Below are positions 12,178 through 64,000 of a stretch of DNA of 64,000 nucleotides, one piece after another. Position 1 is the stretch's first letter. The number at the start of each line of letters is the position of its first letter. This DNA comes from a virus. The position numbers were made by a program, and so were the translations under genes. The stretch covers positions 32,001 to 96,000 of the IMG/VR virus record IMGVR_UViG_3300035670_000034. One strand, given 5' to 3'. The notes beneath the pieces were generated by a model that saw only the letters and a list, made by a program, of their open reading frames with translations, ran no database searches and was not told where the DNA came from.

Positions 12178-12833
12178 ACGAGTTTGATTTCAAAGCGCCG
12201 CAGGATGTTATTTTTGACCTCCCGCAAGAAAGAATCACTGGTGACATTCTTCGTGGGTATGGTCCGCGTCGAGGAAATCTAGAAAGACTTTTAAGATACT
12301 GGCGCCCGATAATGCGAAAGCCGGGTGGATTCAGAAGGTGTCGTGTTATCTTGGCCAACCACCCAGAACTCTACCCGCTTAATAATATTTGCGCATGGCT
12401 ACACCATGAAACAACTGGCCTATGGCCAAATGAGGGATGCCACCATCCGGGTATGAAGAATTGCAAGGGAAAACTCAAGAAAAGAAATTGGACCAATTCT
12501 GAATTCGGTGAGCGACTTAGCCGTGCAATTAGGGCCCCCAAGAAACTCGCAAGAAGTGTTGGTTCCGCAAAGCCACTCGGAAAAACAGCAGAGCAATTAG
12601 AAAATAAAGATGAATTTTTTTCAGAGGATATATGGCGGGAAAAATCAGAAGAGGTAAATCTTTTGACCGCTGGCGACATGGAGTACGCTGATAAGGTCCT
12701 CATGGAATTCATGGATGCAGAATCAGAATTCGTAAAATACCTGCGTAATGATGACAATTGGGAGATAGAGGGCGAGGATGCTGCCGGAATGCCAGTAAAA
12801 GCACAATACATCGGAATGAAGTGTTGCGGATAA
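12174..12833 (+). CDS. Hypothetical head-region protein with 'LLRYW...GGFRRC...CAWLHHETTGLWP' Cys/His motif
   Basis: 219-aa coupled ORF. The motif resembles small metal-binding modules in actinophage head proteins. Confidence 0.65.
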   Translation: MNEFDFKAPQDVIFDLPQERITGDILRGYGPRRGNLERLLRYWRPIMRKPGGFRRCRVILANHPELYPLNNICAWLHHETTGLWPNEGCHHPGMKNCKGKLKKRNWTNSEFGERLSRAIRAPKKLARSVGSAKPLGKTAEQLENKDEFFSEDIWREKSEEVNLLTAGDMEYADKVLMEFMDAESEFVKYLRNDDNWEIEGEDAAGMPVKAQYIGMKCCG

Positions 12834-17900: not shown

Positions 17901-20900
17901 CTACTCAGTTCTTGGGATGATTTTGCTGAGCAAAGGCCTGCGATGGTCTACAGAGGGAGCGGGCAAAAGCGCCCATCACGTGGACTTGCATCTTCCACCG
18001 ACACAAATAAGCGTGGCTCGATAGTCAATGAACTAATCGATTCAGCGCGCGGCGCAAATGAACCAGATTTTGAAGCCAATCTAAAGAAATTCCGCTCTGG
18101 CGCTGACTTAACCGATGATGAGCGTTCAAGTTTGTTGGAGTCACTCAACGATGTTAAAAATAATAATGCCGACTTTAGCGATGATGCGCGTCTTGACGAT
18201 TTGATTGAGCAGGTTGGCGGAAAGAGCGATACCGAAGACGCCATAAACGCAATCAATAAAATTAGGCGTGGACAAATGCCAACACCAGAAGAAAGAAAGA
18301 GGGCTCTTGCATCTCTTAAATTGATGCGTTCGCCGGATAAGAATCTTAGCGAGGATGAGCGCGACACCATCATGGCGTTGGAAAAGCAAATTTCAGGTCT
18401 CAAGTCGAGCACCGAAGATGATGGTGCAGATATCGACGATGCAATTAAAGCAATCGAAAAAGTCAATCGCGGTGAAAGACTTACCCCTGACGAAAAACAA
18501 AAGGCTCTTAATGCCCTAAAACTTGCCAGGACGCCAGACAGGGGGCTCAGTGAAGACGAGAGAATAGGCGTAATGGATATGGAGAAGCGGATTTCACAAT
18601 CCGCTTTGGCATCCAGAACAACAGGCCGCTCAACAAGAAGGCCAGTTGAACAACCGCTGTCAACAAGAATGGCTATGGTCACAACAGAAAGAGCGAGCAG
18701 GCCAAGGGGACTTGCATCAACAACTGGCACTGACGCTCGCACTGAAGCACCAAAGAAAGATGCCAAACCAAAGAGGCGCAGTCGTCTCATTATTGATATG
18801 GTCGACAATTTTGGAAAAACCAAAAAAGATGGTGACGGAGAACTTTGGGAGTCGATGTCCGACGAACAAAAGTCTCAAGCAAAAGAAGCGATTGCAGCAC
18901 AAAGGAAAGTCATCGAGGACAGACTCAAGACAAAATCATTTAAGGGTTGGTGGCAAAAAGCCGAGCAAGGAAGCGACAAAGAGACACTGCGCGCAGTAAA
19001 GAAGCGTGCCAAGGGTCAAGCCGGCGGCACATACGAGGGAAGACCCAAGGACGACCCACTAAACAAAAATGACGTTCAAGACCTTCTTGTGGTTCTTGAT
19101 GATGCCGTTGCTAAAGGTCGAATTAAGAAATACAAACTCAATGATGACGGAACAGTCAAAACTGATAAAGATGGAAGGCCGATAATGACGGAGGCCTATT
19201 CGCGTGCAGCGAGAGACCTTGACGACCTTCTCACAATTCTGAACATGGAAGAAGAGGGTGATTTTTCGGCGCTTGAACATTTCCATACCGGAACAAGGGC
19301 CGCAATTCACAAAAAAGTTGGAACCACCGCAACCGGAAAATTCAAAATGGGCGATTCCTCAATCGCTGGCCAGGCGGGCGGCCTATCAAAGGCGCAAAGC
19401 GTCGAGGAACTCAGCGATGTCGACCTTGGCAAAGCCAAAAAACTCTCCATTGGCCGCAGACTGCTGCGCGTCAATGAAAGGCGTGCCGCACGAGCACGAC
19501 AGCGAGCACTGAGAAGACAGGGTGCTTTCAGAAAGGGAAGAATCCTTACATCGGGAGACCCCGAACTTGAACTAAAGAGAGCACGCCTGCGTGCTCGCGC
19601 CCTGAAGAGAACAATGGTTTCGAAATTCAGAAAGTCAAGAGATGCCGACGGACTCTCAAGGGACATGAGCAAGGCAAAGGCTGAGGTTGGAGCGGTAACA
19701 ATTGATAACGATGGCAAAGTCACAATAACACCACGCTATGTATCGATGCTTTCCAAACTTGGCGGAGAGTACAACAGAGCAAAGAATGTTGGCGATGACG
19801 ACGCAAAGAGAAAAGTGTTTGACCAATTGCTTGCAGACCTGTGGGTGAACAGTGGAATGTCTGGAGAACCAACACTAATCACCGAAGATGAAGCGCGAAA
19901 ACTGGTTGCCGCTGGCTGGCAGCCAGTGATTCGTGGAACTGGTAGTGAAGAGGTAAACAGCGAGTCTTATGTTGAACAGTTTTTGACGAACAAGGAAGAA
20001 CTGCGATTCATTCCGGGCCAAGGCATGAGGGCATACGGCGTTGGCGAATATTTTGCATTCCCGGGAAGCAACTGGAGCGGATATAGAGGAACCGGGGACC
20101 AAAGACACACCATTCTTGCCCTCATTCCACCAAGTGCCGACATTGTCAGTGTTGGCGAACTTACCCGCGAACGAGACAAGATGCGCGATTTGACTTCCCG
20201 TGCGGTTGATGCGACCAAAGCACTCGGTGGGCGTGATGCCGCTGCTGCACTCTCACCTGGAGAACTGGCTGAGGCTTACAGAAAGGCGTTGCCAAATCTT
20301 GATGCAGAAACATCGAGAAGTGGTCAGATTGTGAGCCAACTCGTGCAAAGACTTGAAGAACTTGACAAGATGCCAGCATCTGATGAGGCAACAAAAGAGA
20401 AGAAAGAAATTTTGGGAGCATTTGACTACCTGCAAAGTTTCACAAGACAAAAGGATGTCGGCTACTTTGCGCCACTTATCGGTGTTGACGGAATTGACAC
20501 GAACGATAACACTGGAACAGGTTCGCCATTCTTGTTGCACAACAGAGCAAATGTTGCCGCTGTGCTCAGGCCGCTAACCAGCGACGAGGCAGAGGGCCTC
20601 GCAAAACAGGAGAATGGTGGCTCCGTTGGAAACATTTGGAGAAACTGGAAGACAAGACCAGATAGAAGCCGCGAGGGTGCAGCAATTGAGGACCGAAGAA
20701 GAGTTCTTGTTGGCGGCAAGAGAAGACGCCTGTCGACAAGACGTCCTGGCTCAGATGGCGGTGACTCTGGCTCATCGGCACCCGATTCCCCAGCACCAAC
20801 ACCACAAAACGTAACGCCAGTTTCAAAGAGCGCAGTAAACACTGACTCATGGAAGCAAGGAAGACCCCAGTCAGTTGGCTCAAATCCAGCAACTCTTCTT

Positions 20901-21922: not shown

Positions 21923-24556
21923 TTGCCCATGGCGGCAGAAGAAGATACGAACTCAAAGGTTTTTGCACTTCGTGCTGCTCAATGGATTGGGTGTTCTGGG
22001 GCACACAAAAAAGACGGCAAATGGATGCCGTGCGAAACACACGAAGAACTTGAAAGAATTTCCAATGAAGCGGAACCCCAAAAAAAGACAGGTTTTGAAG
22101 CCCTCACCGAAAATTATACAAAGCGCAAGGCAAAGGGTAAAAAGAAAAGAAATCGCGGTTGGGAAAAACTAAAAGAAAGAAAACCGCTTGGTTTTGCGAC
22201 GCTTGAGGGTGGGGGAATAGTTTCTGCCCCAATCGTTGCCTTTCCAAACGTAACCCTTGGCAACAAGTCCTATATTCCCGGAGTATCTCCAAGAGATAAC
22301 GACCCAGACGTATTTACTGACATTGAGTCGGCGCGCAAACGCTCAAGAATGCTTGGCTGCATCGGCGTACGAAGAATGCCATCGTCAACTGGTCGAACTA
22401 TATGGATGCCATGCACAAACAATTCTGATTATTCACGTCTTGCCGGAACAACGTTTCTTGGAAGAAGAAATCAACGAGAAGCACAACGGAGAATGATTAG
22501 AACAATATTGCGTCGCGAAATGGCAAATAACAACAGACGGAACAAAATTAGAAAGAAATCATTATTTGATGAATTAAACGAAACAAAAGGAATTGGTAGG
22601 GCGATAGGTAGAGCCGCTTCTGGAAACTCATTGAGCAGAAGATTAAGGCGCTCAGTTGAAAAAATTGAAGGAGTTTTAAATCCACTCGAACGCCGAGATA
22701 TGGATGGGGATGGCTTTATTTTTGACGGCACATGGCGGGAAATGAGGGCGCCAAGATTGGCCAGTTCAACCGGGGAGCGACCAGAAATGGAAAAGCCTTC
22801 ATGGGTTTCACCAACCGACAATAGATGGATGAAACCTGCAAAAATCGGAAAAGGTGGACCATTGAAAGCAAGTGAACTGCTTAACTACGACAGATTGAGA
22901 ATTAGAAAAAACAGAGACGAACAGGCTCGAGTCCTCGGAGTGACCAGAGACGTCATAGACGCAATGCACGAGCCGGATGCATCAATAGATGCGTTCGATG
23001 CCGACAGGTTGACAATGTCCGCACTTGGCCTTCACCCAGCGTTGATTTGGGGAGAATCATGGCTTGATGCCGACAAACAACCAAAACCCGAAAAACCTAT
23101 TCGAATAGCAAAAAGAACTGGAAAGCCAGACCAACGCTCTGTTGTGAACGCAAAACGCCGCGACCTAAACGATAGGGACAGGCAAGTTCTTGAGATGCGA
23201 AGAAATGGTAAAACGCAACAAGAGATAGCGGACGAAATTGGAGTAAGCAAGGAGCGGGCAAGACAAATACTTAATGCCGCCATAAAAAGAAACGAAGATG
23301 AAATCGATAAAAATGATGGTCTTGCGTCATCGACTAGTTCCGACCCAATTAACAGACCTGGTCAAATCCCAAGGGATTCGCGCGGAAACATTCTAAAACA
23401 AGGTGATAGAAGAAAAGAAACTCTTGATAAAACCATTGAAAAACTCAAATCAATTGGATTTACCCAGGAAGAAATAAATTTGTTAATGACTGGAGATGCA
23501 GGAACTCCAGTTGACACGGCAACGAGAGATGTTGATATCGCTGCGGCAAAAAGAGGTTCTTTGGCCAGCAGGACAACTGGCCTTGCGTCAATGACATTGT
23601 CCGAAATGGCGCGCACAAACTCATCCGAATGGGCCCAAAATCAAAAAACCCACATAGTCGACTGGGCAAATTCGCGCCCATCATTCAACGTTCCATACTC
23701 TCTTGCTCAGCAATACAAGAGAGACGGTGACCTGAAAGATTCCGAATGGAAAAGATTGCTTAGGTTCTACACGCAGTATGGCCCGGAAAACAGGGGTTTG
23801 CGCTCAACAACTGAAGCAAATCCATTTGAAAATGTCGGCGCAAAAAGAATGGCAAAAATTATTCTTGACAGAGTAAGACAGGATAAGAGAAACAAAAAAC
23901 CAGGTGAAAGAACCCACTATCACGTTGTCGGACCGGGCGCTGTTGGCAAAACAACATTAAGAAAGTATCTAGTTGAACAAGGAATAATCCCCGGGGATAG
24001 CGAGTCAGCCCATGTTGACCCAGACTTCATAAAGCAGGGAATTGAGGGGTACAACGGCGGCGCTGGTTCAATGGCAGTTCATAGAGAATCCGCATATTCC
24101 GCCACAAGAACTGTTAACAATGCCGCAAATGAAGGGATGGACATCGTCACTGAAGGGACCGGATACAGATTATTTGAGTACAAAACAACAAGCGACCCCG
24201 CCTACAAAAAGGTCCTACATATCCCCTATCTCTCATTTGACGAAGCAGAAAAAAGACTCAGAAAACGGAATGCAGAAGGTAAGCGGCAACTTCCCGAAAG
24301 CCAAATAAGAATAAAGGGTCAGCAATTTTATGGATGGCTTGCCGACCACATCCAAAGGGGCGAAGTTCAAGATATGTATATCTGGGATATGGATGTACCC
24401 AAAGGTGCTGCGCCAAGAGTCATCGCAAAAATAGAAAATGGTGTGTTTAGAGCAATAGACGAGCCGGCATTTAAGAAGTGGTCAGAACAATCTGGCGGGC
24501 ACAGGGGTGGCGACGCAAACCTCGCATGGTTCAAGAGACGTTTTCCAGAAAAATAA
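21923..24556 (+). CDS. Polyvalent protein (877 aa): two 'GCxG...WMPC' repeats, DxDGDG tag, XRE-like HTH, sigma70-region-4-like HTH, C-terminal zeta-toxin/AAA_33-like P-loop kinase
   Basis: GCSGAH..WMPC and GCIGVR..WMPC; DMDGDGFIFDGTWRE (22697); LNDRDRQVLEMRRNGKTQQEIADEIGVSKERARQI; VVGPGAVGKTT...VDPDFIK...DIVTEGT. Five linkers. Likely ATG at 21929. Confidence 0.75.
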   Translation: MPMAAEEDTNSKVFALRAAQWIGCSGAHKKDGKWMPCETHEELERISNEAEPQKKTGFEALTENYTKRKAKGKKKRNRGWEKLKERKPLGFATLEGGGIVSAPIVAFPNVTLGNKSYIPGVSPRDNDPDVFTDIESARKRSRMLGCIGVRRMPSSTGRTIWMPCTNNSDYSRLAGTTFLGRRNQREAQRRMIRTILRREMANNNRRNKIRKKSLFDELNETKGIGRAIGRAASGNSLSRRLRRSVEKIEGVLNPLERRDMDGDGFIFDGTWREMRAPRLASSTGERPEMEKPSWVSPTDNRWMKPAKIGKGGPLKASELLNYDRLRIRKNRDEQARVLGVTRDVIDAMHEPDASIDAFDADRLTMSALGLHPALIWGESWLDADKQPKPEKPIRIAKRTGKPDQRSVVNAKRRDLNDRDRQVLEMRRNGKTQQEIADEIGVSKERARQILNAAIKRNEDEIDKNDGLASSTSSDPINRPGQIPRDSRGNILKQGDRRKETLDKTIEKLKSIGFTQEEINLLMTGDAGTPVDTATRDVDIAAAKRGSLASRTTGLASMTLSEMARTNSSEWAQNQKTHIVDWANSRPSFNVPYSLAQQYKRDGDLKDSEWKRLLRFYTQYGPENRGLRSTTEANPFENVGAKRMAKIILDRVRQDKRNKKPGERTHYHVVGPGAVGKTTLRKYLVEQGIIPGDSESAHVDPDFIKQGIEGYNGGAGSMAVHRESAYSATRTVNNAANEGMDIVTEGTGYRLFEYKTTSDPAYKKVLHIPYLSFDEAEKRLRKRNAEGKRQLPESQIRIKGQQFYGWLADHIQRGEVQDMYIWDMDVPKGAAPRVIAKIENGVFRAIDEPAFKKWSEQSGGHRGGDANLAWFKRRFPEK

Positions 24557-24703
24557 GACGTCTATTTACATACATTCGTTTGCCAAGTTTTATTGGTAGT
24601 TCCACTACAGAAACAATATTTTCTGTATCTTAGATACCTAAGGGCTGGGTGCTTACCTGAGCCAAGCAACAAGTCCATAACTCACAAGAAAGTAAAAATC
24701 AAC

Positions 24704-26023
24704 ATGTCTACAGAAGACACCAACAGATTGAGCGAACTGCAAGGCGCACTTCGCTCGAAGATGGCGGAGAATAAGGCAATTGCCGATTCGTTCCGCGTCG
24801 AGGAAGGCGTTGTCGTCGTTTCGACTGCGCAGAAGACCGCGTTCGACAAGAACATGGCCGACATTCGCGAAATCAAGTCGCTCATCAGCGGCCTTGAGGC
24901 AATGAGTGAAGTCGAGTCGTGGGGTGGCGCACAGGCCAAGGAGTCGGTTGCTCAAGCAGCCGCCGCACAGGCTCAGACGTTCAACCAAGCGGAAACCCGC
25001 AGCATCGGTGAGGCGTTCCTTGCCTCAGCCGAGTTCAAGTCGTTGGCCAATGGCCGCAACGGCGCGAACATGGCTGCTCCGTTCCAGTACAACGGTGGCA
25101 TTCAGGTCAAGGACGTGTACACCACGCTCCCGACCGGCAACTTGGGCAACAACGCCAACGCAGTGTTCGGCACCGTGCAGCGTGACCCGATGATTGTTCC
25201 GCCGAAGCGCACCAAGAGAGTCCGTGACCTCTTCCCAGCGCGTTCGACGTCCTCGACCGTCATCGAGTACTTCCGCATGACCGGCTTCACCAACAACGCC
25301 GCAGCAGTTGCTGAGCGTGTTGGCAACCAGTTCGGCATCAAGCCACAGTCGAGCATGTCGTTCGAAGGTGCGCAAACGTCCGTCAAGACGCTTGCACACT
25401 GGGAGGCGGCGCACCGCAACGTTCTGGCCGACGAGCCACAGTTGCGCGGCATCATCGACAACGAACTGATGTACGGCTTGCGTCTGCAGGAAGATGCTCA
25501 GATTCTTCTGGGTGACGGCACTGGTGAGAACCTGCTCGGCATCCTCAAGACCCCTGGCATCCAGACCTACAACTGGTCGTCGGGCGCAACCGATGCGCAG
25601 AACAACAAGAAGGACTCGCGTGCGGATGCAATTCGTCGCGCGTTGACCCTCTCGATGCTCGCCTACTACGAGCCATCTGGCGTTGTTCTTCACCCGAATG
25701 ACTGGGAGCAGATTGAACTGACCAAGGATGCAAACGGCCAGTACCTCATCGCAACTTCGGTTGCGCTGGGTGGCGAGCCGCGCGTCTGGCGCACGCCGCT
25801 TATTGAGAGCGTCGCAATGCCAGAGGGCACTGCCCTTGTCGGTTCGTTCGGCCAAGGCGCGCAGTTGTACGACCGCGAGCAGGCCAGCATCCGAGTCAGC
25901 GAGCAGCACGCGGACTTCTTCATCCGCAACGCCATTGTGATTCTTGCCGAACAGCGCCTTGCGCTGGCCGTCAAGCGTCCAGAGTCGTTCGTGCGTGTCT
26001 CGTTCGACCAGGCCCCTGCCTGA
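24704..26023 (+). CDS. Major capsid protein, HK97 fold
   Basis: N-terminal coiled-coil delta-like region; 'FEGAQTSVKTLAHW...LADEPQLRGIIDNELMYGLRLQEDAQILLGDGTGENLLGIL'; C-terminal 'FIRNAIVILAEQRLALAVKRPESFV'. Strongly C/G-ending codons. ATG at 24704 preferred over 24593. Confidence 0.93.
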   Translation: MSTEDTNRLSELQGALRSKMAENKAIADSFRVEEGVVVVSTAQKTAFDKNMADIREIKSLISGLEAMSEVESWGGAQAKESVAQAAAAQAQTFNQAETRSIGEAFLASAEFKSLANGRNGANMAAPFQYNGGIQVKDVYTTLPTGNLGNNANAVFGTVQRDPMIVPPKRTKRVRDLFPARSTSSTVIEYFRMTGFTNNAAAVAERVGNQFGIKPQSSMSFEGAQTSVKTLAHWEAAHRNVLADEPQLRGIIDNELMYGLRLQEDAQILLGDGTGENLLGILKTPGIQTYNWSSGATDAQNNKKDSRADAIRRALTLSMLAYYEPSGVVLHPNDWEQIELTKDANGQYLIATSVALGGEPRVWRTPLIESVAMPEGTALVGSFGQGAQLYDREQASIRVSEQHADFFIRNAIVILAEQRLALAVKRPESFVRVSFDQAPA

Positions 26024-44576: not shown

Positions 44577-45016
44577 GATATGTCGAAAAAAGGGCGCCGC
44601 AGCACAATCATTTGCTAATCAATGCAAAAACTCCGTTTCCGCTTACGAACAAGCGGAGAATGAAAAAGTGGCTAAAAGGGCTCGTTCACGATATTGGGAT
44701 GTACAGAATCGCTGGACCCTTTGTTCACTACGTTGACAAGCCTGGCAATAAGGGTTTGACGGCTGTTGTAATGATTGAGACAAGCCACATCGCCCTGCAC
44801 ATCTGGGATGAGCCGGTACCAGCACATATACAATTCGATATATACACCTGCAGTGGGCTTGATGTTGAATTGACTCTTTTGAAAATTGTTAGTGATTTCC
44901 AAATCACACAAATTGACTGGGTCTTCTATGACCGGGAAAAAGGCTTTAAGGAAGTCTCCAAGGGAAATTCAGTTGGCGACATTATGAAGGGCCGCAACAA
45001 GCCTCCAGTAATTTAG
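44573..45016 (+). CDS. S-adenosylmethionine decarboxylase-like (pyruvoyl-dependent) protein
   Basis: GLTAVVMIETSHIALHIWDE...QFDIYTC. Confidence 0.75.
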   Translation: MRYVEKRAPQHNHLLINAKTPFPLTNKRRMKKWLKGLVHDIGMYRIAGPFVHYVDKPGNKGLTAVVMIETSHIALHIWDEPVPAHIQFDIYTCSGLDVELTLLKIVSDFQITQIDWVFYDREKGFKEVSKGNSVGDIMKGRNKPPVI

Positions 45017-46983
45017 TCGCTAACTTTATTCAAAAGCGACAAAACCAACTGCGTTCCAAGGTCAGATTCTTCGTCAAGAGAAGCGCCGTCAACTGCAGTG
45101 TTCACAACGCTTCGCTTGGAGGCAATGAGTGAGTAAATCTCCTCATCTATCGTTCCAGCACAAAGCGCATAGGTGGCGGTAACTGAACCCTTTTGGCCCA
45201 TTCGGTGAAGTCGCGAGTATGTTTGGTCAAGGTCGGCTGGTGTCCACGGCAATTCAACAAAGATGATGTCTTGGGCTGCCGTAAGGGTGTGTCCAGTCTT
45301 TGCAGCCTGAATTGAAATGGTTATCACTTGCGCTTTGGGGTCGCCCTGAAACTTTCGTTTGACGTCTTCGACTTCCTCAACACTCATTCCGCCTTGTATT
45401 TTCAAACCACCAAAACGATTAGCAAGTTCATCAACGATGTCTCTGTGATGAGCGGCAATAACGACTTTGGCGCCACCTTCAGTTCGTTGCTGAACCCACT
45501 CAATGACGCTCTCCATCTTTGCTTTGGCGGCCAAGCGCCGCAAAACCGACAGCCTGACCAAGTTCTGTGCGTGCTCTGCTTTTATCCTGGCTATTACTGC
45601 TGCAGACTTGGGATTTGTGCCTAGTTCTTTTGCTATTTCTTTTGCTCGCTCTACGAGATACAAAACAATGTCTTTTTCTGCCTTTGCATACTCCGCCATC
45701 GCTGCGGTTGTTCCAACCAGGGTCATTTCCTGATGAAACACTGGAGGCAATTCAGTCAAAACCTGGTCTTTTGTGCGGCGTATGTAGCAAACGGAACGAA
45801 GTTTGTCGTTTAATTCCTCCAAATTGGACGAACCCTCAAGATGCCACTGCCCCCATTTGTCTTGAAACGCAGCGCAATAACGGCGGTAAAAACCCCATAC
45901 CCCACCAAAATCCTTAATCTTGCCAAGTATGTCGAGTTGCGCCACATACTCTGCTGGTCGGTTGGTGACTGGTGTTCCAGTTAGGCAAAGAACAGGAGTT
46001 CCAGATGGAGAAGAGCCGACAATCTTTCTGGCTGACTTGGTGCGCTTGGCGGTCAAGGTCTTGCAGTAATGGCTCTCATCCAAAACATACGCATGATGTC
46101 CGATGAGGTGTGACTCCCAATATGAAATATTCGAATACCCAATCACCAAAACGTCGTAGTCGCCCTTTTGCGGAAATTCTTTTTGCCCTTTTCCGGCAAG
46201 CACCGTAGCCACTCGCCTAGCGGGTAGCCATTTGCCGTATTCGGCCTTCCAGTTAAGGACCAAGTTGGGTGGACACATTACTACCGCCGGGTAACAACCA
46301 GCACCATCTGCATACAACGCCTCTAACGTGGCTATTGCTTGTAGGGTTTTACCAAGACCCATCTCGTCTGCAATGAAACAGCGCTTGGCGCGCTTGGCGT
46401 ATGCAACTCCTGCCTTTTGGTACGGGAGCATGTTGTTTTCAAGGTTGGTATCGCCAATCTTTATTTCTGCTTCTGTGGCCCTGGATGCCTCATTGAGTTC
46501 CAGTAGTTGCGCATTGATTTGAGCAGCCATCATCGTGACATCGGCAGATACCGACTTGTTAAAGCGCTGCGCCCACTGGATGCTTTCGTTTATTGCGGTT
46601 AGCGGCGCACGCCACGCTCCGGTAGATTTATCCCAAGTGACAGAAGGTATCTGTTTAACCGACCTCACCATAACGGGGTCATACGGAAAGGATATGTAGA
46701 TGTCACCGTCTTTCTCATAGACCCCAACATCTTGGGCACTTCGCCTGGTCGGAAGTGTAAATACAAGCACCTCATTGTCTATGTCAAAGCCATGCTTGGT
46801 CGCAAATGAGCGCGCCTGGGACACCTGGGCAACTGGACAGCGCCACAAGCGAGCAACTTTGTCCCACTTGCAATCCGGTATCCGCTTTACCTCGGCTACC
46901 TGTTCTTGGTTGTATGGGAAATCCAAAGCAAGGGTGTCATTGTCCAAAAATAGCCGTGCCATCGGACTCAATTTTATCTCCAA
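45013..46983 (-). CDS. SNF2-family helicase with two N-terminal HARP-like repeats
   Basis: IADEMGLGKT, VLDESH, LTGTP, QTYSRLHRMGQ. Repeats 'FPYNQEQVAEVKRIP...WDK...W' and 'FPYDPVMVRSVKQIP...WDK...W'. Confidence 0.88.
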   Translation of the reverse strand: MEIKLSPMARLFLDNDTLALDFPYNQEQVAEVKRIPDCKWDKVARLWRCPVAQVSQARSFATKHGFDIDNEVLVFTLPTRRSAQDVGVYEKDGDIYISFPYDPVMVRSVKQIPSVTWDKSTGAWRAPLTAINESIQWAQRFNKSVSADVTMMAAQINAQLLELNEASRATEAEIKIGDTNLENNMLPYQKAGVAYAKRAKRCFIADEMGLGKTLQAIATLEALYADGAGCYPAVVMCPPNLVLNWKAEYGKWLPARRVATVLAGKGQKEFPQKGDYDVLVIGYSNISYWESHLIGHHAYVLDESHYCKTLTAKRTKSARKIVGSSPSGTPVLCLTGTPVTNRPAEYVAQLDILGKIKDFGGVWGFYRRYCAAFQDKWGQWHLEGSSNLEELNDKLRSVCYIRRTKDQVLTELPPVFHQEMTLVGTTAAMAEYAKAEKDIVLYLVERAKEIAKELGTNPKSAAVIARIKAEHAQNLVRLSVLRRLAAKAKMESVIEWVQQRTEGGAKVVIAAHHRDIVDELANRFGGLKIQGGMSVEEVEDVKRKFQGDPKAQVITISIQAAKTGHTLTAAQDIIFVELPWTPADLDQTYSRLHRMGQKGSVTATYALCAGTIDEEIYSLIASKRSVVNTAVDGASLDEESDLGTQLVLSLLNKVSD

Positions 46984-47001
46984 TCCATGTAGTGTGTCGG
47001 G

Positions 47002-47457
47002 GTGGGAAAAAACTCGGCGTACGACATTCCTTCTTTACGTTCTACTTTTCTCAAAGACCTGGAATACGGAGAGCAGGGAGAAGCACTCGTATCATCGTTC
47101 CTAGAATGCATTTCTGAAGGCGATTTTGAGGTAAAAAGCGACAGATACAGGAATGGGCGAATGGCAGTAGAAACTGACCAAAACCCGAGGGCAGCCCTAG
47201 ATGAACAAGGCAATCCTATCTGGGTAAAAAGCGGGATAAATCTAACCAAAGCGAAGTGGTGGGTATATATTTTTTCCCCTGATGGTGCTTTTATCGTCGT
47301 TTCAGTTGACAGGCTCAAAAAATACTTGCGAGCCAATAAACGCATATTCAATGAATCAACAAAAATCAATTTTGGTAAGCCAGACAATCCAGCAAAAGGA
47401 TTCCTTTTGTATCCACAGCATGTTCAGGACCTGATGACCAATCCTGCGTTTGGATAA
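47002..47457 (+). CDS. PD-(D/E)xK nuclease-like protein
   Basis: KDLEYGEQGE...DFEVKSD...GRMAVE. Contains copy 3 of the 15-bp element; copy 4 overlaps its stop. Confidence 0.55.
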   Translation: MGKNSAYDIPSLRSTFLKDLEYGEQGEALVSSFLECISEGDFEVKSDRYRNGRMAVETDQNPRAALDEQGNPIWVKSGINLTKAKWWVYIFSPDGAFIVVSVDRLKKYLRANKRIFNESTKINFGKPDNPAKGFLLYPQHVQDLMTNPAFG

Positions 47458-47466
47458 ATCTAACCA
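47452..47466. promoter_or_regulatory. 15-bp element GGATAAATCTAACCA, copy 4, at the left edge of the repeat array
   Basis: Exact match; the first GYCCCG follows at 47529. Confidence 0.6.
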
Positions 47467-47528
47467 GAGTTTGGGAGTTCACAAATTGTGGTGTAGGTGC
47501 CCCCGCGCACACCGAGAGCGTCGAAAAA

Positions 47529-48795
47529 GTCCCGCACACTTTTGGTCTATGGGGTTGGCAAACGCCTGTTCGCTTACGGCAACGACGAACACTCGTTCGC
47601 ACCCTCCAAATAGCGTCCCGATGAGCGCAAGAGCAACGCTGAACAACACCACGCCCAACCATAGCACAGGTCAAATACACGTCCCGTTTGCCGAAGTGGT
47701 GCGCCACAAACCTGAGTGTGTCGCAGAAATAGTCGCACTCAACGCCATACACGCCCCGTTTGCCATATCAGTCGTGTATCGCAGTCGCAACACGCCGTTT
47801 CACTACGCCCCGTTAGGCGCATAGCATTGTGTGTTGTTACGCATACGCATACGAAGTTGCCCATCACCTAGCCCCGTAGCGCATAGCGTTTCGCATAGCG
47901 CAGCGCAGTCGCATACGCATACGCCCCGTATTCATTAGTCTTTTCGTGTGTGTCGCATACGCATTTCGTATCGCTTGTCGCATCTAGCCCCGTGAGCCAT
48001 AGCCATAGCAACACGCAGGCACACATACACGTCCCGTATGCGCCGTGCGCTGGTGTGTGTGAGCATACGCATAGCCAACCCATAGCCACTATGCCCCGTA
48101 TGTCGCATACGCATTCAGATACACACGCCCCGTTGAGTTTTTCGCAGGCTTCACGGGTGACCTACGGGCATACCCTACCTATGACAACACCACACACCAC
48201 CACGCATCTAGTCCCGTAGGTAGTGATAGGTATTTGTAATCAGTAGTCACGCACCATAGCAAGCCCATACCCCTACCCCTATGTGTGTCGCATCTAGCCC
48301 CGTAAGCACTACACCATAGGGATACCCCCACACCACGCCTACCGTGTGTGGCTTCATCTAGCCCCGTGACGCATACAACCTTTCGTAAAGGACTTGATAC
48401 TTAGCCGCCCCGTGTTTTCGCAAGGCTCACGGGTGGCTTACGGGTGCTTACACCTACCTACACCACTGCCTACACCACACACGCATCTAGCCCCGTAGGC
48501 ACTTGACTACACGCCACCTGCCCATAACCACATTTGGTCGTTGCTGAACATAGGCCCCGTAGTCGCCTATCGCAGTCAAGCGATACGACATCTCGCTTAT
48601 GAGAGTGCTTCACTATGCCCCGTATGGCGTGTGAGAGACTGAACACGGCGCAAGAGCCGTGTGTCTACTTGCGCCCCGCACAACATAGTCGCAGAACAGC
48701 ACTTGTAGACAAACGATAATCAGCCCCGTACAAAACACGGATTTTGAGGGTTTTTTCAGCGTTTTTAGTGCTGTACTCAGCGCACTCAGCCCCGT
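47529..48795 (+). repeat. Non-coding polarised array of 21 G(C/T)CCCG(T) repeats
   Basis: Copies at 47529, 47615, 47681, 47753, 47807, 47871, 47923, 47987, 48031, 48093, 48127, 48211, 48297, 48361, 48407, 48490, 48554, 48617, 48673, 48723 and 48789, all on +. Extended CATCTAGYCCCGT x5. No credible ORF. Confidence 0.85.
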
Positions 48796-48835
48796 GCCAT
48801 AATAAAAGAACCCGATTACACCAAAAAGGACTTGT

Positions 48836-51800
48836 GTGACGCAACTTGGCCCCGAAAACAAAGACATTTACGAAGTTGATGTAAAAGACGGCAACCGTCT
48901 AGGTCGTCGCTTGTCTCGGGGCTTGAGGTCACTATCCAGAAGTGTCGGAAACACGGCAAGGTCGGGACTCGTTGTGGAACCATTTGACCCAAACGCATAC
49001 GACGGTGATGGTGACGGCATAATCCAAGACGGAACACAGTGGGAACGCCCCGCAGTGCTAAGAAGTCAGTCAATACCAAACGCAGACTTGCCCAAAACAC
49101 CTGATGCCGGGACTGAAACAGAAACAGAAAAGACACAAAAAGAGACAAGAAAACTCGTTGACGCAGCAGAGCGAGCCGGGACTCGGATTTCGCCAGAACG
49201 CTCACGGGTGACTACGGGTGGACTACGCAGTACGACAGTAACGCCGTTGCTTGACCCAGAGTGGCGAAGAACAGCAACGCCCCGAGAACTCGCTGAAATA
49301 ATCGTGCCAGACACGCTTGATGAAGCAGACGCACTAGCAGAACAGTTGGCAGTGCCCCGAAGTGCTTATGAAACCGAAGCAGACTACCAAAACGCACTAA
49401 AACTACTCAGAAGAACTCGGGACGCAGAAAGAGCCGCATCCAAGCGTCGTATGGAAGCACTTATCGCGATTTACGAAAAAAGACACCCCAAAACAACCAA
49501 AACAGGCTCGTTTGAGCGGGACCTAAGAGATGACCCTATTGAGTGGGACAAAAACCTCAAAAAAATCTTTGGCGACCAAAATGAGTGGGGCGAACAACTC
49601 GGGGCAACAAACAAACGGAGCGTTGAGCGGGCTCAAATAGAGTTTTTGGTCGCTTACAGAACAGAACTGGAACGGGACCCAGTAACAAACAAAACACTAT
49701 TGGACATAATAAATGAAATAGAAAACGCCTATCGAAACGGAGTGAGGCTCACGCACGGGGCTTTTTGGAGAGACAGTACTCACATACCAATCAGTCCCGT
49801 TGAGTATGTGCTTGCTCGTTTGTTTATGGAACACTCAAACCACCCACAAGACCCGTTGTTCATAACCGGCATTCGGGACGTAGTAACGCCGTCGGGCGAC
49901 ACCGACGCAGTTATCAGATGGGCGACTGAGTTCCTTGATGGATACCAAAGGTTCTACGAAGCACGAAAGGGGTCCCGTGCTCTTTCCAAGCAACAAATAA
50001 AGAACAGAATAGAAGTAGCAATGAACTCTGGGTCAAGAGGAGGCTTTTTCGGGACCCTTTTTGGTAGGGCTATTCCAAACGAACAATACATACAAACACA
50101 CCAAATGGTGGAAAGCAACGACCCTCGGGACCTTGCGCTACTACGGGCACTGTTACAAAGAACGCTAGAACAAAACCCTGAGTTTTTGGAAGCAGTAAGG
50201 AAGTTTGGACACCCGCCTCTCTATGTCCCGCACCGCGCTTACCATTTCATTGCCCCGCCAAGAGAGTTCCAAGAAAAGTTTTTGCTTGTTCCAGAAAGCG
50301 AACTAACGCCATCTGAACTGCGGGACAAACTTATTTCAGGAAAAGAATACGAAAAAGGTTTGCTTGAAGCAATCCGCGCCCAAGAACTCGGAAAAGGAGA
50401 TGTCACGTTCGGGGCAGGTGGACTACTTGGTGTACGGGCGGGACTTGGTGGACAGTATTCATTTCCTGATGGGCAAATAACACTTACCCCAATGCAACTG
50501 AGAAACACAATACTCAACCGCCCCGAGGCTGATGAAAACATAATCAACATGACCGGGACACAAGGCGCATACACGCTTGTTGGAGAACCAGCAATTCTCA
50601 TACACGAATTTGGCCATCACGTTGATTGGACTTTGCGCAACACCTTGTACGGGGCCTTGTGGGAGAGACGCAAGAGGGCTATTCGTGACTTTGCCAACGA
50701 CCCAAATAGAAATACAAGCCCCGACGTGTTCAAAGATTTTGTTCGTCAGCAGATAGTAGATTTTCGTGACGAACTAAAAGGCTTCACGGGCTTGGTAGAC
50801 CCCGATAACCCAAGCAAGTTGTCCGGGGCATCAGATAGACAAAACATTCATAGAAGTCGCTTGAAGTACTTAGGAGTGAACGTCCCCAGACAAGGCCCCG
50901 ACGAAGTTCCTGTTGGTAGTCGTCTGTTTGACCCATCAACGCTAACCGACGAAGAACTAGATGACCAAATAAGGGAAATAGCGGGGCAACTAGATGAAAT
51001 TCACGGAATGGTCGACATGCTGACTGGTCGCCAGCAAATACGACGAATGAAAGAAAACGGCACGTGGCAACGTGGCATCCACCCATCAGAAGGAGACGTA
51101 GGCGATTACGCCATAAACAGCCCCGAACCTTATGTAACTACGCCATACGGAAATAGCAGTGCGATTGAGCGTTTTGCTGAAATAACAGCGTTTGTTTTGT
51201 CCCGCAACGGACAAAAACAGCCTGTTGCGGTGAATAACGCCGCCGTGCGTCTATGGGCTCGGATACTTGGCATAGATGTAGAACCACAAGATGTTGTTTC
51301 TCAGTCCCGTCGCAAAAGACTTCCTTCGGGTGGCTACTCAGACGAAATGGAAGACATAACAAACCGCATACTCTCAGACATAAAGATTGTTGCGCCAGAT
51401 GTTCAGAGGCAGCCAGACGGTCACCGCCCCGGTTTGCAATCATCAACGTCATCATCAGATTTTCGTTTTGACCCAGATGAACGAAGCATGTTGCAGTCCC
51501 GTAGCAACATAGGCTTGGACACAGACCAACGCCTGTACGCACAAGATGAGCCGATAGGCGTTATGGATTTCATGAATAGGCCCCGTGTCTACTCAATAGG
51601 CGACCATCATTTCTACGATAACGAAGTTCGCTATGGCTCGCAGATGAGTTTTGCGATGAGAAAGCGACTTGGAGAACAAGCGGGACGCAGATACATCAAC
51701 AGAAACAGACCCCATCACGGAGATATGGTGCGGGCGATTTCAGCAACGCAGTTTGGACTGTTTATTGACGACCTTCCAACTTACGACACAACTACATCGG

Positions 51801-54800
51801 GGCAAATGAACGTTCTTCGTGGACTTGTTACGGGCAGAATAGCCAAACTACGCCCCGAAGAACGCTCACAAATAGAAGAAGCACTTAGAGACGCAACGAG
51901 AATACACTCGGCTATTTACGGCGCAACTCCGAACAAACGGGACACATACAGAGCGATAAAGACTGATAGAAAAACATTTTTGGAAAGCGTTGCCGTTGGC
52001 GACGAAATACCTATGCCGATTACGGCCTTCAGCCCCGATAAGCCCGACAACAACGAGAATGTGATTATCCGACTAGAAAAAGGCGCAAAAACCATAGATG
52101 TCGGCAACAGGCAAGTTCTTACTCAGGGCAATTTTGAGGTCGTTTCGGTTGATGACGACGGGACCCGTGTCATTGCCACGTTGCGCCATAAGGAAACATT
52201 TGACCCACGCCACGACGCACTTAGACCCGTGGACAAGTTTTCGGATAAGCCGAACGCAATGCGCAAGATGGGCAGTCCAATGCCCCGATACACCAGAGAC
52301 GAACAACAAAAGATGGAAGTTGATTTGGAGCGCAGACAGGACAAAGACAAAGTGTTTGGCTTGCGCTCAACAACGGGTATGGTCCCGGAGGATTTGAGCG
52401 AAAAAGAGATTGACGATTTCCTTGATGAAGAAGTGAACCTGTTTGAGGAAAAGCGGGTCCCGAAAGAAGTAGTTGATAAAGCGAAAAAGAATTTGCGTGA
52501 TTACTTGCAGAGAAGTGCTATTCGTCGTTTTGTCAAGACAAAGCAAGCCCTTATCCAAAAGTACGGGGCCGATAAGCCGTGGGAAAGAGACGCAGACGCA
52601 ATACGCAAATGGAGAGCAATCGACAGGGAAACCGCCGCACGGGTAAGCACAGTCCTGAGACGCAGCCTAAGAAACGCAATTGACAATAGAACTCGGGACA
52701 TGATGGATGCCGACACGGGCGAATTGTTTGACGACGCAAAGGTTGGCTTGTCCAGAGTACTGGACAGGTTCAACTATTACATAAACGACTACGAAGGTAT
52801 TGACTTGTCAGCGGGGCAGATTAGGCATCTTCTCGAAACTGGTCAGTTCGTTTACTGGAGACGGGACGACGAACTGTTCCCAACTGAGAAAATGGTAATC
52901 AATTTGCCAATCAACTCACCAGAAATGGCAGAACTCAAACAGGTTTTGGAGACGACACTTCCAGCATTGGAGGCGATGTCTCGGGCTTACTTGCTCGATG
53001 GTTCGGTCGACGTCCCGAATGCCAACAGAAGCATTTGGGAAGACCCAAAGATTGGCGGAAAGATAATCCTCAACAACGAGGAGTTGAACATAGTCCCGAA
53101 CGGTAAGGGCGTTTATGCAATATTCCAGCCAGATGGTTCTGAAAGCATAAGCCTTGTTGCGAACGCATCTTTTGGAGTTGGCAGCCAACGACCCAATGGA
53201 ACAACTGGTTTTACTCGCAAAATAGGGCTAGACCGGGACGGGAATATTGTCATTGGTCATGACCGTTTCTGGATGGGCAGCAAGGACAGAGAACGCAAAG
53301 GTTCTGGTGTGGCGACGCTATTCAACCAGCATTCGTTTTTGTGGTGGAAGCAGCATGAGGGCACTGAGGTTGTGGTCCCGAATGCCGTGAGTGACGGCGT
53401 GATTGTGTGGCCACGTCAAGGTTTCCGTCGGATTGGTCAAGCACGACGGGACGCATTGGAAGAACAAGAAGGATTTTTCCATATGGTCAGGGCTTTGGTG
53501 CTGAAATCAAAACGACAAGAACTGTTTGACGCAAACCGTCCCGAACGCGGGGGAACGGCAGAATACGAAGCGGCGCAGTTGGTGAAATACGTTGATGATG
53601 TTGATAGTAAATACGGACTTGATAATCCAGAGTTTGCAAAACGCCTAGTGAACTGGCTTGCGCTTGCTCGCACAGCAAATGATAATCAAAGCCCCGAAAC
53701 AGACCTCATCAACATATTGGCAAACATTATTGAGCCAAGAGAATTGAACGACAGCCAACGCCTGAGTTGGGCTGAACTGTTTGGACAAGTAGCGAAAAGC
53801 AATAGTTTCAGCATGTTTTTGAATCGGGACGAAAGCGACAATGACTACCTACCATCATTCGTCATCCCAGACCCGACTGACGACCTAGACCCGATGGAAG
53901 TACAACGCCAAATAGAGCGTGGCAGATTGTTGCGCCAAGAGTTGGAGAACTCACAGGCCCCGAGCGAAGTATCAAGAGATATTTACTTCCCAGAAGATGA
54001 CAAGGAAATTTCTAGCAACCGACTGCTTGGGGAAAGACAAGCGGGACGCCTATTTGCAGCCGTGAACATAGACGAAGCGACCAGTTCGGATACACGAACT
54101 TTTTCCTCAGCACGGGCATTCATGTATGCGAGAGAGGGTTCTGGCTTCAACGTCCCGCCAAGACTTCTCACACGGGTGGAAACAGAGGAACGAATTAGCA
54201 GGGGTGAAATACCCCTCTATGGTTGGATTGACCTCAATCGTGTCGGCATTTACACGAGCGACAGAAACAACATGCAAGAACTTTACGAGCAACGAGTTCG
54301 CAACAATATGGTCGGACTGGCGGGGCCGAGTGAAGTCATGCGTTTCACCGATAAGCCATTTGACCACATTGACGATTTCCACGACACGAACAATCCAGTT
54401 ACAGACCCAGCAGCAGTTCGCAGTGGAATGCTTGGCTACCTAGCCCCGTGGGCTCGTGTTTACAAAGGTAAGCGAAATGCTTTGCCAGAAATGTTTTGGG
54501 GCAACAGCACGGAGATTTCAATCGCAAGAGACATGCGGGACAGGGGCGATTTTGATGGTTTGATGGCTTTGCTTGTCAATAAGTTTGGCGAGGAGGTAGA
54601 TAACTCGGTGATGGGCACGGACGTTGCGTTAGTAGAAACCCTAGATGGATTTTTGCCAAATGGAAACTCCGAAACAGCACAGACGGGACGCCGAGTGTTG
54701 GGGGCATTGTTCCAAATTGAAAATAATCGAAGAATGGCCGAAGCAGGTATCTCAACGGCAATTAGGCAAGATAAGATACAAGGACTTAGAGATGGCTTGC

Positions 54801-57800
54801 TTGCCATCATGGCAACAGAGTTTGACCAATCATTGCTGGTTTTGATGGGATATGACGCAATACAGCACAAAGACGGGGAGTTCACAATCCTCAACAACAT
54901 GGCTGTCGAACTAATGGATGAGCCAGTTTCGTTCGCCCAAGCAGCGAGGATGATTGACGACCCGAGATTCAGAGCCATACCGTCCGATAGGTCCCGTTAC
55001 TCAACGTTCATTGAAACAAGACTTGTGGATAACCCTGACTGGTTTAGTGGCGACGACCCACGCCTGCTTGCCGACGAACCCATTTCTCTTACAAAAGCGG
55101 GTTTGAACAGTTCGACATACATAAGGTCTGTGCGTCAAGACCACAACATCAACCTAGAACGGGGACTACGCAGTAGAACACGGGGCTCGATTGCAAGCGC
55201 AAGAGAAAGACAGCGCCGAGAATCAGCAAGAGAAGGTAAGTCAGATGGGTGGGTAAATCCTGACGACGCATCATTCAAACAAGAAGTTGTAGAACTCGAG
55301 GGTCGCTTCAACGCGTTGGTTGCCCAACTTGAGGAGTGGGACGATAGGAACCTTGAACTCGACCGCCCCGATTGGGCCGGCCGCGAAGAAATCAAGAAGC
55401 AAATGGATGAAATCTCGGACCAGTTTGCGTCACTCATCAACACATCTAACATCGTCATTGAGAAATCCATGGAACACCAGGCGCTCATTGACGCCCTTGA
55501 CGCCATAATCAACGAGCGGGACGCCGACTACCTAGACGGGCGACCAAAGGTGAAAGATATTTCGCCAGAAATGCTTGACAAGATAAGGGCGTTGCGGGAT
55601 AAACTGGTACAAGAGAAGCAAGATAATCCAGGCTTGCTTGACTTCACACGGGCACGTGTCAGACACAAGACAATCAAGAACGCAATGGAAAACTTCGACC
55701 TTCAGTACGAGGTTCGTTGGTTCAATAATGAACCTGACACAGTTGAACTTGAAGACGTAGTCAAAGCGGATGTTTCCGACAAGGCCGAGGCTTTCGTAGA
55801 ACACATTTATCGTGGTCTGTTCGACGAAAGATACGACGCTTGGAGGGAGTACATGAAGCCGACGATGGCATTCGGCGTACCCCTTTACGACTCGACTTGG
55901 GAGTTGGGCCACAAGAGAGTTGGCGAACTGTTTGACGGGGTGAGCCCTGATGAACGGGACGCTTGGAGGGCGGCGCACAAGGACTTCCTCGATAGTGAAT
56001 ACAACGCAGAATACGAAGAGGACATCATCGACTCAACACCAGTCGGTGGTTCGACCAGACCACGTGACGTCCCCGCCCCGATTTGGCGTAAAGTCAGGGC
56101 TGCCATGTCACGGGCACGCTCAACTCCATACAACGGCGAGAAAGAGGCTGCCACAAACGCAGCGATACGACTCCTCAATCCACACCGACCAGATTTGGCT
56201 AACGAAGACTTTGTTTCGGGCATTAGGTCGCACACTATTGTCAGCACACCTCGGTCGGTAGTGAACTTCTCTTCCAAGCAAATGCGGGGCGCCAGCCCAA
56301 CCTCTCCAACAACCGCAATTGAGAACCACGCATTCTCACGCATCATTGATGAGGTGAGGAGCCAAGGCATAGAAATAGAAGAAGCAGACCTATTGCCCAC
56401 TGGTAAGTACGGAAGCAAGTTGCGCCAGATTATGGACGACAACCAATCCACACAGTCGGTTAATTGGTTGATTAGACAAACAGAAGACGACCCAGTTCTT
56501 TCTGCCGTCGTAAATGCGGCGATAAAGCAGGCTCGACTCACAATGGGCATAACCCCAATCGAGGGTCACAGAATCAAAAAGGTGAACGGCCCCGTTGATG
56601 AGGAGATTGCTGATGTTCTCGTAGACGACATCGACTTGGCTTTGTTGCGTAATCAGGGTGCGCCAACCTATGACCAAATTATCCAAATAGCAGCAGCAAA
56701 ATACATAGAACACGATAGACTGAACAAAGCATTCGGTTCTTACCAAGACCCAGAAGGCAAACTCATCGGCGCTGGCTTTACCCGCATCGACAAAAACAGC
56801 ACTGCCTACCTGACGACGATGACCAGCGCCCCAGACGTTGATGGGAAAGACTACGTCTATAGGGACATTCGGGGCAACGAGGTTGCCCGCTTAAAGCGTT
56901 ATGACAGCGTGAAGTCAGATAACGTTGCAAGTCGCAAACCAAAAACCTTGAGTAATTTCGCCACGCAACACTCACTCATCAAGACCAATGACGCCATTTT
57001 CGGGGTAATGGCGGAGGCGGTTGAGTTTACGGGTGACTACGAAAATGCAAGTTTGAAGAAACTAAGGGCGACTATAGAAGAACTACAAAGCATTTACAGG
57101 AACTTTGAGTTTGCCCCGACTCCAGCGGGCCAACACCTGAAAAAACTATTTGAAGCGAACCTTGAAAGCGAAGTAAAAACTTTAGAACTTCTGGAAAGAA
57201 TTGGGCAGCGATATGTACACCTGTTGCGTGAGCGGGGCATTTCGGACAAAGAAATAAGAGAGATGCTCTCAACCGTCAGGAAACAAACACTCAAGACAGC
57301 CGTTGACCCCGTGGGGAGGGAGGACCTATTCCTGAATGGCAGCCCGATTCCAATCGGCAGTTCCAATGACGGAACAGTCGCAGAGCAGGCACTTTATGGC
57401 TTTTTGAACAGCAAACTCGGTAGTGCCATGCTGCCCCGTTTCGCCGACTCAGACGCACCTGCTGGTTTTCACGAGATTGGTCACTTTTCTTTTGGCCAAG
57501 CCTTCTCACGTCACGGTGAGTTCGTCGCCAATGCTTGGCCATTCTTTGTGCATGGCGACGCATTCTGGAGGTCGTTTGTCGCCTTACAGCGCAATCAGGC
57601 ACCCACCTTTGACAAGTGGACAATATCTGAGCATCTTGGGAAAGCCCTGAGCCCCGAACAGAAAGCAGCCTTCAAGGATGCCTCAAGGCTCATAGGCAAA
57701 ACACTTAGCCGAGACTTCGTCGCTGCATTTGAGAGAGAAAGATACATATCTCTTGGCGATTCAGAACGACAAATAATAGCCTCGGATGTCATTGCGGCAG

Positions 57801-63868: not shown

Positions 63869-64000
63869 TTGTCCAGCACCCACTCGATTACTTCGGCTTG
63901 TTCGTCAGTGACATCGTCGGTGAGTGGGGCAGAGAAGTAGTCCTCCAACTGGCCAGTAGCCCACTCGTAGAACTGCTCCATTACCTGCTCAGCCTCTTCA
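63865..64000 (-). CDS. 3' end of an acidic hypothetical protein (partial)
   Basis: EEAEQVMEQFYEW...EWVLDK* is open to the window edge. Confidence 0.5.
   Translation of the reverse strand, partial: EEAEQVMEQFYEWATGQLEDYFSAPLTDDVTDEQAEVIEWVLDK

Follow-up and report, generated by a model that had tools for sequence, protein, structure and literature searches.

The window studied here is a 64,000-nucleotide stretch, positions 32,001 to 96,000, of a 136,198-bp contig from an uncultured actinobacterial phage (IMG/VR record IMGVR_UViG_3300035670_000034). Between a gene of 151 amino acids (aa) and a giant gene of 3,355 aa, it carries an array of the hexamer GYCCCG. Analysis of this genome and its relatives shows that GYCCCG sites are read as double-stranded DNA, are maintained by selection according to genome position, and are forbidden outside a single compartment. 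Early-promoter cassettes make up this compartment, together with the giant gene next to them in this phage. Restriction-type palindromes are strongly depleted within it, and the array lies exactly at its inner edge. We tentatively favor, with somewhat less than even confidence, the view that proteins assemble on the array to form a boundary or stop element for a first-stage segment exposed to restriction, comparable to the injection-stop region of phage T5. Positions below are those of the window unless they are given as genome positions.

A helically phased array of one hexamer in non-coding DNA

The array occupies a gene-free stretch of 1.38 kb that runs from the stop of the 151-aa gene (47,457) to the GTG start of the 3,355-aa gene (48,836) and holds only short, unconserved open reading frames (ORFs). 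A preliminary description of this DNA had listed 21 GYCCCG copies here, all on the plus strand; we recovered every one of them between 47529 and 48789, at the successive spacings listed (86, 66, 72, 54, 64, 52, 64, 44, 62, 34, 84, 86, 64, 46, 83, 64, 63, 56, 50 and 66 bp), and located a 22nd plus-strand copy at 48849, within the start of the 3,355-aa ORF. The base next after the hexamer is T in 18 of these 22 copies, and information content is restricted to seven positions. Across the window, 127 copies compare with 47.6 ± 6.9 in shuffled sequences, and none lies to the left of 47529.

The spacing had been described as near-helical, and periodicity analysis bore this out: over the whole 5–120 bp range scanned, the best period for the array positions was 10.65–10.66 bp (Rayleigh R 0.70–0.74), with helix coherence extending across the entire 1.3 kb. 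Random spacings drawn from 34–86 bp gave P = 0.0005, and none of 500 sets jittered by ±5 bp matched the observed phasing. The spacers themselves are rich in alternating purine-pyrimidine runs, as previously noted (runs of at least 8 at 12.4 per kb, vs. 2.4 per kb genome-wide). The word CATCTAGYCCCGT occurs in the array in the five places reported. A second strand-specific word, GTCGCATACGC, was also present; TCGCA occurs 15 times, vs. 0 on the opposite strand. The reported duplication of ~90 bp proved real upon alignment (blocks 48127–48220 and 48407–48499), and its core, TCACGGGTGRCYTACGG, is also conserved in G002, a relative that lacks the array.

Both ends of the non-coding stretch are conserved. 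The leader (47455–47534) can be aligned with the orthologous regions of L023 and G002, and the 15-mer around the first site is the same in this phage (G000), L023, G002-type contigs and L285. At the other end, TGCCATAAT, a −10-like element (48795–48803) conserved relative to G002, abuts the last non-coding site, and an AAAGGA ribosome-binding site (48825–48830) precedes the GTG; TGCCATAAT may be a promoter element. L023 has an orthologous array that keeps the sites but neither the spacers nor any reading frame, which supports a non-coding nature of the stretch.

Two properties of the array recall a transcript, either a long leader or a non-coding RNA, in which 22 GYCCCGU motifs would bind a protein (the preliminary description had listed a long non-coding RNA among the things to exclude): its words are strand-specific, and it lies upstream of the giant gene, on that gene's sense strand. 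An Rfam search with the array, however, returned no match at E values up to 1, and its RNA folding was not unusual (mean z −0.48 and −0.40, vs. −0.38 and +0.28 for coding controls). Moreover, 10.66-bp phasing is a property of duplex DNA, and the motif is avoided on both strands elsewhere in the genome. We consider an RNA function scarcely credible. Promoter-like and terminator-like sites in the array did not exceed their frequency in shuffled sequences.

The hexamer is confined to a graded field

All 199 GYCCCG copies in the genome fall between genome positions 79,529 and 119,320 (30% of the genome), with 0 in the other ~96 kb. In an unbiased scan of 6-mers, GCCCCG (128 vs. 0) and GTCCCG (71 vs. 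0) were the sole 6-mers split in this way. One-letter variants of GYCCCG are common in the site-free part, where all 18 patterns are present 12–105 times each, indicating that recognition of the hexamer is exact. GCCGGA/TCCGGC is split in the opposite sense, with 1 copy in the field (genome 79.4–120.5 kb) vs. 41 outside.

Within the field, sites thin out with distance from the array: mean spacing rises from 63 to 73, 93, 128 and ~220 bp, holds a plateau of ~200 bp over 15 kb of early genes, and then widens to 384 and 608 bp. In the first 5 kb from the array, spacing is far more even than expected by chance (coefficient of variation 0.22–0.30), with no interval below 27 bp. The in-gene sites occupy both strands and have no flanking preference; no helical phasing was detected in the coding part of the field, so phasing is limited to the non-coding array. 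We also considered, and dropped, a model in which each turn of the packaged DNA spool carries a single site: a spacing that grows with the square root of distance fitted no better than linear or power laws, and the observed spacing settles at the ~200-bp plateau. Literature searches for a graded or evenly spaced phage motif yielded nothing comparable, and the array DNA had no match among phage records. A pattern scan of IMG/VR for three spaced sites returned no new arrays; for the most part it picked up tandem runs spaced by multiples of 3, 9 or 15 bp, which we interpret as repeats within collagen-like coding sequence.

The sparse end of the field (genome 114199–116471; 2199–4471 of contig L196) carries a MoxR/AAA_5 ATPase gene followed by the gene for a 517-aa partner (phrog_33218). 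At this end, L196 also encodes two small ribbon-helix-helix-like proteins (4563–4850 and 7746–8111; genome 116.6 and 119.7 kb), which are possible DNA binders.

Phasing on one helix face, a single orientation, the absence of an RNA signal, and a position at the densest point of the hexamer field together point to an anatomy of cooperative protein assembly. The preliminary description had proposed a nucleation site for a GYCCCG-binding protein and had named pac sites, iteron origins and plasmid centromeres as known settings of phased direct repeats. The first part of this proposal is supported, in that the array has a non-coding, duplex-level, cooperative-assembly anatomy suited to a putative GYCCCG reader; the three named functions are not supported, and it counts against them that the orthologous non-coding region of relatives is without repeats.

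A pac site for the small terminase subunit, or a Chi-like element protecting DNA ends, is in our estimation very unlikely. The phased direct hexamers are reminiscent of the P1 and SPP1 pac sites, which likewise consist of several short direct repeats at helical spacing and are bound cooperatively, and the sparse oriented sites are arranged symmetrically about genome position ~113 kb. Yet those pac sites are 100–300 bp long and are found within or next to terminase genes, whereas here the motif extends over 40 kb and the large terminase (genome 25.8–27.1 kb) and portal (27.3–29.3 kb) genes are 52 kb from the array at 79.5 kb. In the dense field neither orientation of the hexamer predominates, close relatives do without an array, and neither pac nor Chi function explains total avoidance elsewhere.

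An iteron-like replication origin is improbable as well. The array is built of phased direct repeats and lies 0.5–6 kb from genes for the SNF2 helicase, a primase-helicase and a WhiB-like protein, beside the replication module. However, only 6–7 bp are conserved per unit, as compared to iterons of 17–22 bp; the G+C fraction, taken over two 1-kb windows covering the array, is 0.49–0.53, with no A+T-rich unwinding tract noticed; and DnaA boxes (pattern TTNTCCACA) number 4 in the window, the level expected by chance, and 0 in the array. Together with the remote terminase genes, the lack of DnaA boxes argues against a pac site or an origin. The only initiator-like ORF found is at genome 118.6 kb, ~39 kb away, G002-type relatives retain the non-coding region minus the repeats, and an origin would leave 177 further in-gene sites unexplained.

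The remaining function, a centromere or ParB-type loading site for a spreading protein that leaves a macrodomain-like mark, would account for a site density that falls off from a cluster, as it does for spreading proteins, and the phage encodes two ParB_N proteins. Their genes, however, flank a PAPS-reductase gene at genome 19.9 and 21.8 kb, ~58 kb from the array; no partition operon adjoins the array (ParA was not searched for); the sites are asymmetric 6-mers, not palindromic parS; and the phage looks lytic from its gene layout. We give this explanation little credence. In a broader sense, the hexamer does resemble the matS/MatP, RacA ram, ParB-parS and Noc sites of bacterial chromosomes, short motifs that occur in a single region of the chromosome only and mark it as a domain for a DNA-binding protein. 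Those sites are 13–16 bp long, few and mostly palindromic, and are neither evenly spaced nor graded.

Sites are gained and lost according to genome position

We recruited relatives of this phage via the neighboring SNF2 helicase (56–85% identity) and found in them a GYCCCG field over the early region and none elsewhere. The helicase gene itself lies inside the field in some genomes (G002, G004, G005, L016 and L026), where it contains 9–10 sites ~215 bp apart, and outside it in others (this phage and L020–L024), where it contains 0–1; the in-field orthologs are 75–85% identical to the helicase of this phage (83% in one case), and their sites are regularly spaced. Codon alignment revealed that the choice among synonymous codons creates or avoids sites where the residues themselves are conserved; all frames and both strands are involved. 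For example, Cys-Pro-Val is encoded by TGC CCC GTT (a site) or by TGT CCA GTT, and Thr-Gly-Leu by ACG GGA CTC (a site) or by ACT GGT CTT. When helicase sites are lost, substitutes arise a few bases away. The preferred form of the hexamer drifts among genomes: G004 has nearly all GCCCCG, and G001 has GTCCCG, mostly followed by A or T.

The array is lineage-specific: a scan for the leader 15-mer found it only in this genome and in L023. In G002-type relatives the non-coding region measures ~0.9 kb and retains the leader, the first site and a TCACGGGTGACCTACGGG element, but the repeats are absent.

The place and orientation of the helicase gene differ across three layouts: among the early cassettes (G002, 23075–24997; G004, 10899–12827; G005, 18124–20046), beside the array (window 45013–46983), and co-oriented within the replication module; in L023 it lies at 815–2752. 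The gene looks mobile. Contigs related through the 151-aa protein (L001–L015, ~50% identity) have another gene context, no motif field and no other strongly enriched 6-mer, and no relatives were found for the N-terminus of the 3,355-aa protein. G001 (L053–L060, 140.6 kb) has 267 copies of CATGG, with none in one stretch of 27.8 kb (log10 P ~−23); this would be a further compartment-specific word.

The compartment is poor in restriction-type palindromes

Palindrome content provides a second signature, independent of the hexamer. Palindromes of 4 bp occur at 22.6 per kb inside the compartment vs. 46.3 outside, and the observed/expected ratio for 6-bp palindromes is 0.35 inside vs. 0.75 outside. 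The depletion of the two classes is 2–4 fold, and the best two-rate fit to 1-kb profiles, by change-point analysis, places it at genome 78,900–112,400, from the array to the last early promoter. The 3,355-aa gene shares it, with a 6-bp observed/expected ratio of 0.30 vs. 0.67–0.81 in the other giant genes of the phage. L023 has the same step at its array (0.71 vs. 0.25). Along G002, G004 and G005, hexamer density and palindrome content are inversely correlated (Spearman −0.63 to −0.72), and the giant gene of G002 has no sites and a normal palindrome content.

Phages of the T5 type provide a precedent both for compartment-specific avoidance of restriction sites and for a border region of repeats: they are restricted solely via sites in the first-step-transfer DNA, which is bordered by a long non-coding repeat region (PMC10644984; bioRxiv 10.1101/866236). 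The phage studied here likewise has, where its early segment borders the rest of the genome, a long non-coding region rich in repeats (1.38 kb, 21 repeats; in both phages the region exceeds 1 kb), and, as in T5, where restriction sites matter only in the early segment, it is the early segment that proved poor in them. The two differ in construction. The T5 region has large inverted repeats and DnaA boxes and lies in a 10-kb terminal repeat; the array has direct, phased copies of an exact hexamer and no DnaA boxes. Further differences are the graded field of 177 more in-gene copies and the total exclusion of the motif elsewhere. Two-step entry would be a prediction for the present phage, and the two share no sequence kinship.

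Two further observations concern palindromes. In G003 (L070–L072), the 6-bp observed/expected ratio is 0.00–0.20 over 30 kb (21–51 kb) and this desert ends abruptly at ~51 kb; hexamer density climbs steadily with distance from that edge. In the 136-kb contig of the present phage, GATC and AGCT have zero copies, as do all 6-bp palindromes that contain either, which suggests strong genome-wide pressure by two 4-bp restriction systems.

Oriented sites are linked to early promoters

The early region has 31 near-identical promoters, all on the minus strand, between genome 91.0 and 112.9 kb. Of 83 sites, a single one falls in the 190 bp downstream of such a promoter. On the upstream side, 26 promoters have a site within 200 bp, and in 22 of these it reads CGGGRC on the sense strand, 10–85 bp ahead of the −35 element. 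The consensus of these promoter-linked sites extends to CGGGGCNNNCG, an extension seen only at cassette ends. G002 (17 of 19 early promoters), G004 and G005 obey this rule too, despite differing promoter words, and in the block at 113–120 kb of the present genome site orientation flips with gene direction (7:1).

Two explanations specific to the cassette-end sites were rejected. They do not form terminator hairpins in any regular way: the position of the site in the stem is inconsistent, and lower folding energy tracks higher local G+C. Nor do they reflect a peptide signal, since their reading phase varies and all three phases occur.

The site-promoter rule supports the main rival explanation, stoperator-like silencing or insulation, which we regard as possible though not probable. 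A phage regulator on GYCCCG would block RNA polymerase; single oriented sites would close each early cassette, and the dense field and array would either silence the early region or keep leftward transcripts from running on into the replication module. The array is indeed oriented to face leftward transcription, complete avoidance in the middle and late operons suits a blocker, and known stoperators follow the same orientation rule (PMC9283540). Like the sites described here, the stoperators of Cluster A mycobacteriophages, which are bound by L5 gp71-type repressors, are many, dispersed and asymmetric, and belong to actinophages. Stoperator orientation follows transcription, with sites at gene borders (PMC9283540); the promoter-linked sites (22/26) and the 113–120 kb block (7:1) conform to this pattern, but the giant gene (43:40) and the internal sites of the early region are oriented at random. 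Stoperators are 13-mers that number ~20–30 per genome, are distributed genome-wide, and serve the immunity repressor of a temperate phage, whereas the present system has a 6-mer core in 199 copies in one compartment, most of them within ORFs, with a density gradient and a phased array. In addition, the densest sites are inside a gene that needs its own transcription, an exact 6-bp site is short for a repressor, and no repressor was found. Silencing would also leave the palindrome-poor compartment, the gradient and the helical phasing unexplained.

Features of the window and neighboring genes

The features of the window are collected in Table 1. Fold searches with the 151-aa protein gave weak matches throughout (Z 3–4.7), to restriction endonucleases, the homing endonuclease I-Ssp6803I and Hjc resolvases; on these matches, weak as they are, it may be a PD-(D/E)XK nuclease. 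The word (G)ATAAATCTAACCA follows the stops of successive replication-module genes (window 47455–47470; L023 2745, 3487 and 4004); it may serve as a promoter for middle genes or mark gene ends.

Table 1. Features in and around the GYCCCG array, in window coordinates.
Feature	Position	Strand	Remarks
SNF2-family helicase gene	45013..46983	-	0 sites here; in-field orthologs have 9–10
Palindrome-poor compartment, in-window part	46900..64000		change-point analysis and 1-kb profiles
151-aa gene (phrog_13596)	47002..47457	+	always ahead of the non-coding region; invariant E-V-K-x-D-R motif
Leader, TAAATCTAACCA ... GGTGTAGGTGC ... CGAAAAAGTCCCGCA	47455..47534	+	right after the stop of the 151-aa gene; ends in the first site (47529)
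Array of 21 GYCCCG(T)	47529..48794	+	non-coding; mean spacing 63 bp; phased at 10.66 bp; GTCGCATACGC-rich spacers
Two imperfect ~90-bp copies	48127..48499	+	TCACGGGTGRCYTACGG between two sites in each; from alignment
Array end and gene start	48789..48838	+	last non-coding site 48789–48794, then TGCCATAAT, ribosome-binding site and GTG
3,355-aa polyvalent-protein gene	48836..58903	+	83 sites (43:40 on the two strands); spacing 73 to ~220 bp
Early-promoter cassette region, start	59037..64000	-	continues to genome 112.9 kb; ~5 sites per kb

The nuclease-like gene bears on a further alternative, that GYCCCG is the target of a restriction-like enzyme (a site-specific nickase, cutter or DNA-modifying enzyme) that would mark or nick the early segment and thereby set it apart, slow it down or destroy it at a later time. 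Enzymes of this kind typically recognize their sites in all-or-none fashion and tolerate one degenerate position; the hexamer shows a drift in specificity, as in G004 and G001; the PD-(D/E)XK-like gene abuts the array; and the genome has a ParB-PAPS-reductase-ParB cluster. Against this, no C5 or N4/N6 methyltransferase was found in the phage, phages that lack the motif can have the 151-aa gene too, the fold evidence for its product is weak (Z 4.7), and G004 has sites on opposite strands 4 bp apart, where nicking at both would break the DNA. We judge an enzyme target field to be unlikely.

A candidate boundary between two stages of infection

The palindrome-poor compartment, the oriented promoter-linked sites, and the position-dependent gain and loss of sites are the grounds on which we favor a boundary of an early, first-acting segment. 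By this account, the compartment would face host restriction at a time when the genome is not yet protected, akin to the first-step-transfer DNA of T5. A putative hexamer-binding protein would load ever more densely toward the array, whose 22 sites on one helix face would gather it into a compact nucleoprotein complex. This complex would serve as a stop, anchor or barrier between stage one and the remaining genome, acting on DNA delivery, on polymerases arriving from the early region, or on both. Any stray site would halt the process at the wrong place, and total avoidance in the rest of the genome would be explained in this way.

Several observations weigh against such a boundary. The record is labeled "linear" and 91% complete, and the order of entry proposed here is hypothetical. 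The nearest large terminases (~43–44% identity) come from psiM2 and from Gordonia phages, one of whose records begins on a gene; these relatives look like headful, permuted packagers, and packaging of this kind would leave no fixed first-entering segment. No GYCCCG reader protein was identified, and close relatives are without any array. The 113–120 kb block has sites yet a normal palindrome content, and in G003 and G001 the palindrome and hexamer signals overlap only partly. Finally, oriented promoter-linked sites speak for transcription rather than entry. Two candidate markers of the genome ends were discarded along the way: the "terminal repeat" of G001 is just 127 bp and probably an assembly overlap, and the breaks of relatives' contigs near 118–120 kb are assembly breaks as well, since the G002 contig starts inside a gene.

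A more specific version of the boundary, which we offer as speculative, treats the hexamer field as a metering device: graded "rumble strips" written in silent codons would slow the incoming DNA, or the polymerases pulling it, and the phased array would arrest it. This would set the timing of delivery and divide the genome in two, with a first stage that is restriction-proof and a second that enters under protection. The boundary and a stoperator-like blocker may also be aspects of one system.

If this reading is correct, the phage and its relatives carry a spatial code over protein-coding DNA, in which a hexamer is kept at set spacings in one compartment, purged elsewhere, and rewritten when a gene crosses the border, by the time its protein has diverged by a few tens of percent. 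Such a code would point to a DNA reader with the exactness of a restriction enzyme. To our knowledge, the cis encoding of staged delivery in T5 is still unexplained after 50 years; the present system would provide a new model for the cis encoding of staged genome delivery or of early shut-off, and the motif field together with the palindrome step would serve as a computational marker of the first-stage or early compartment in uncultured phages.

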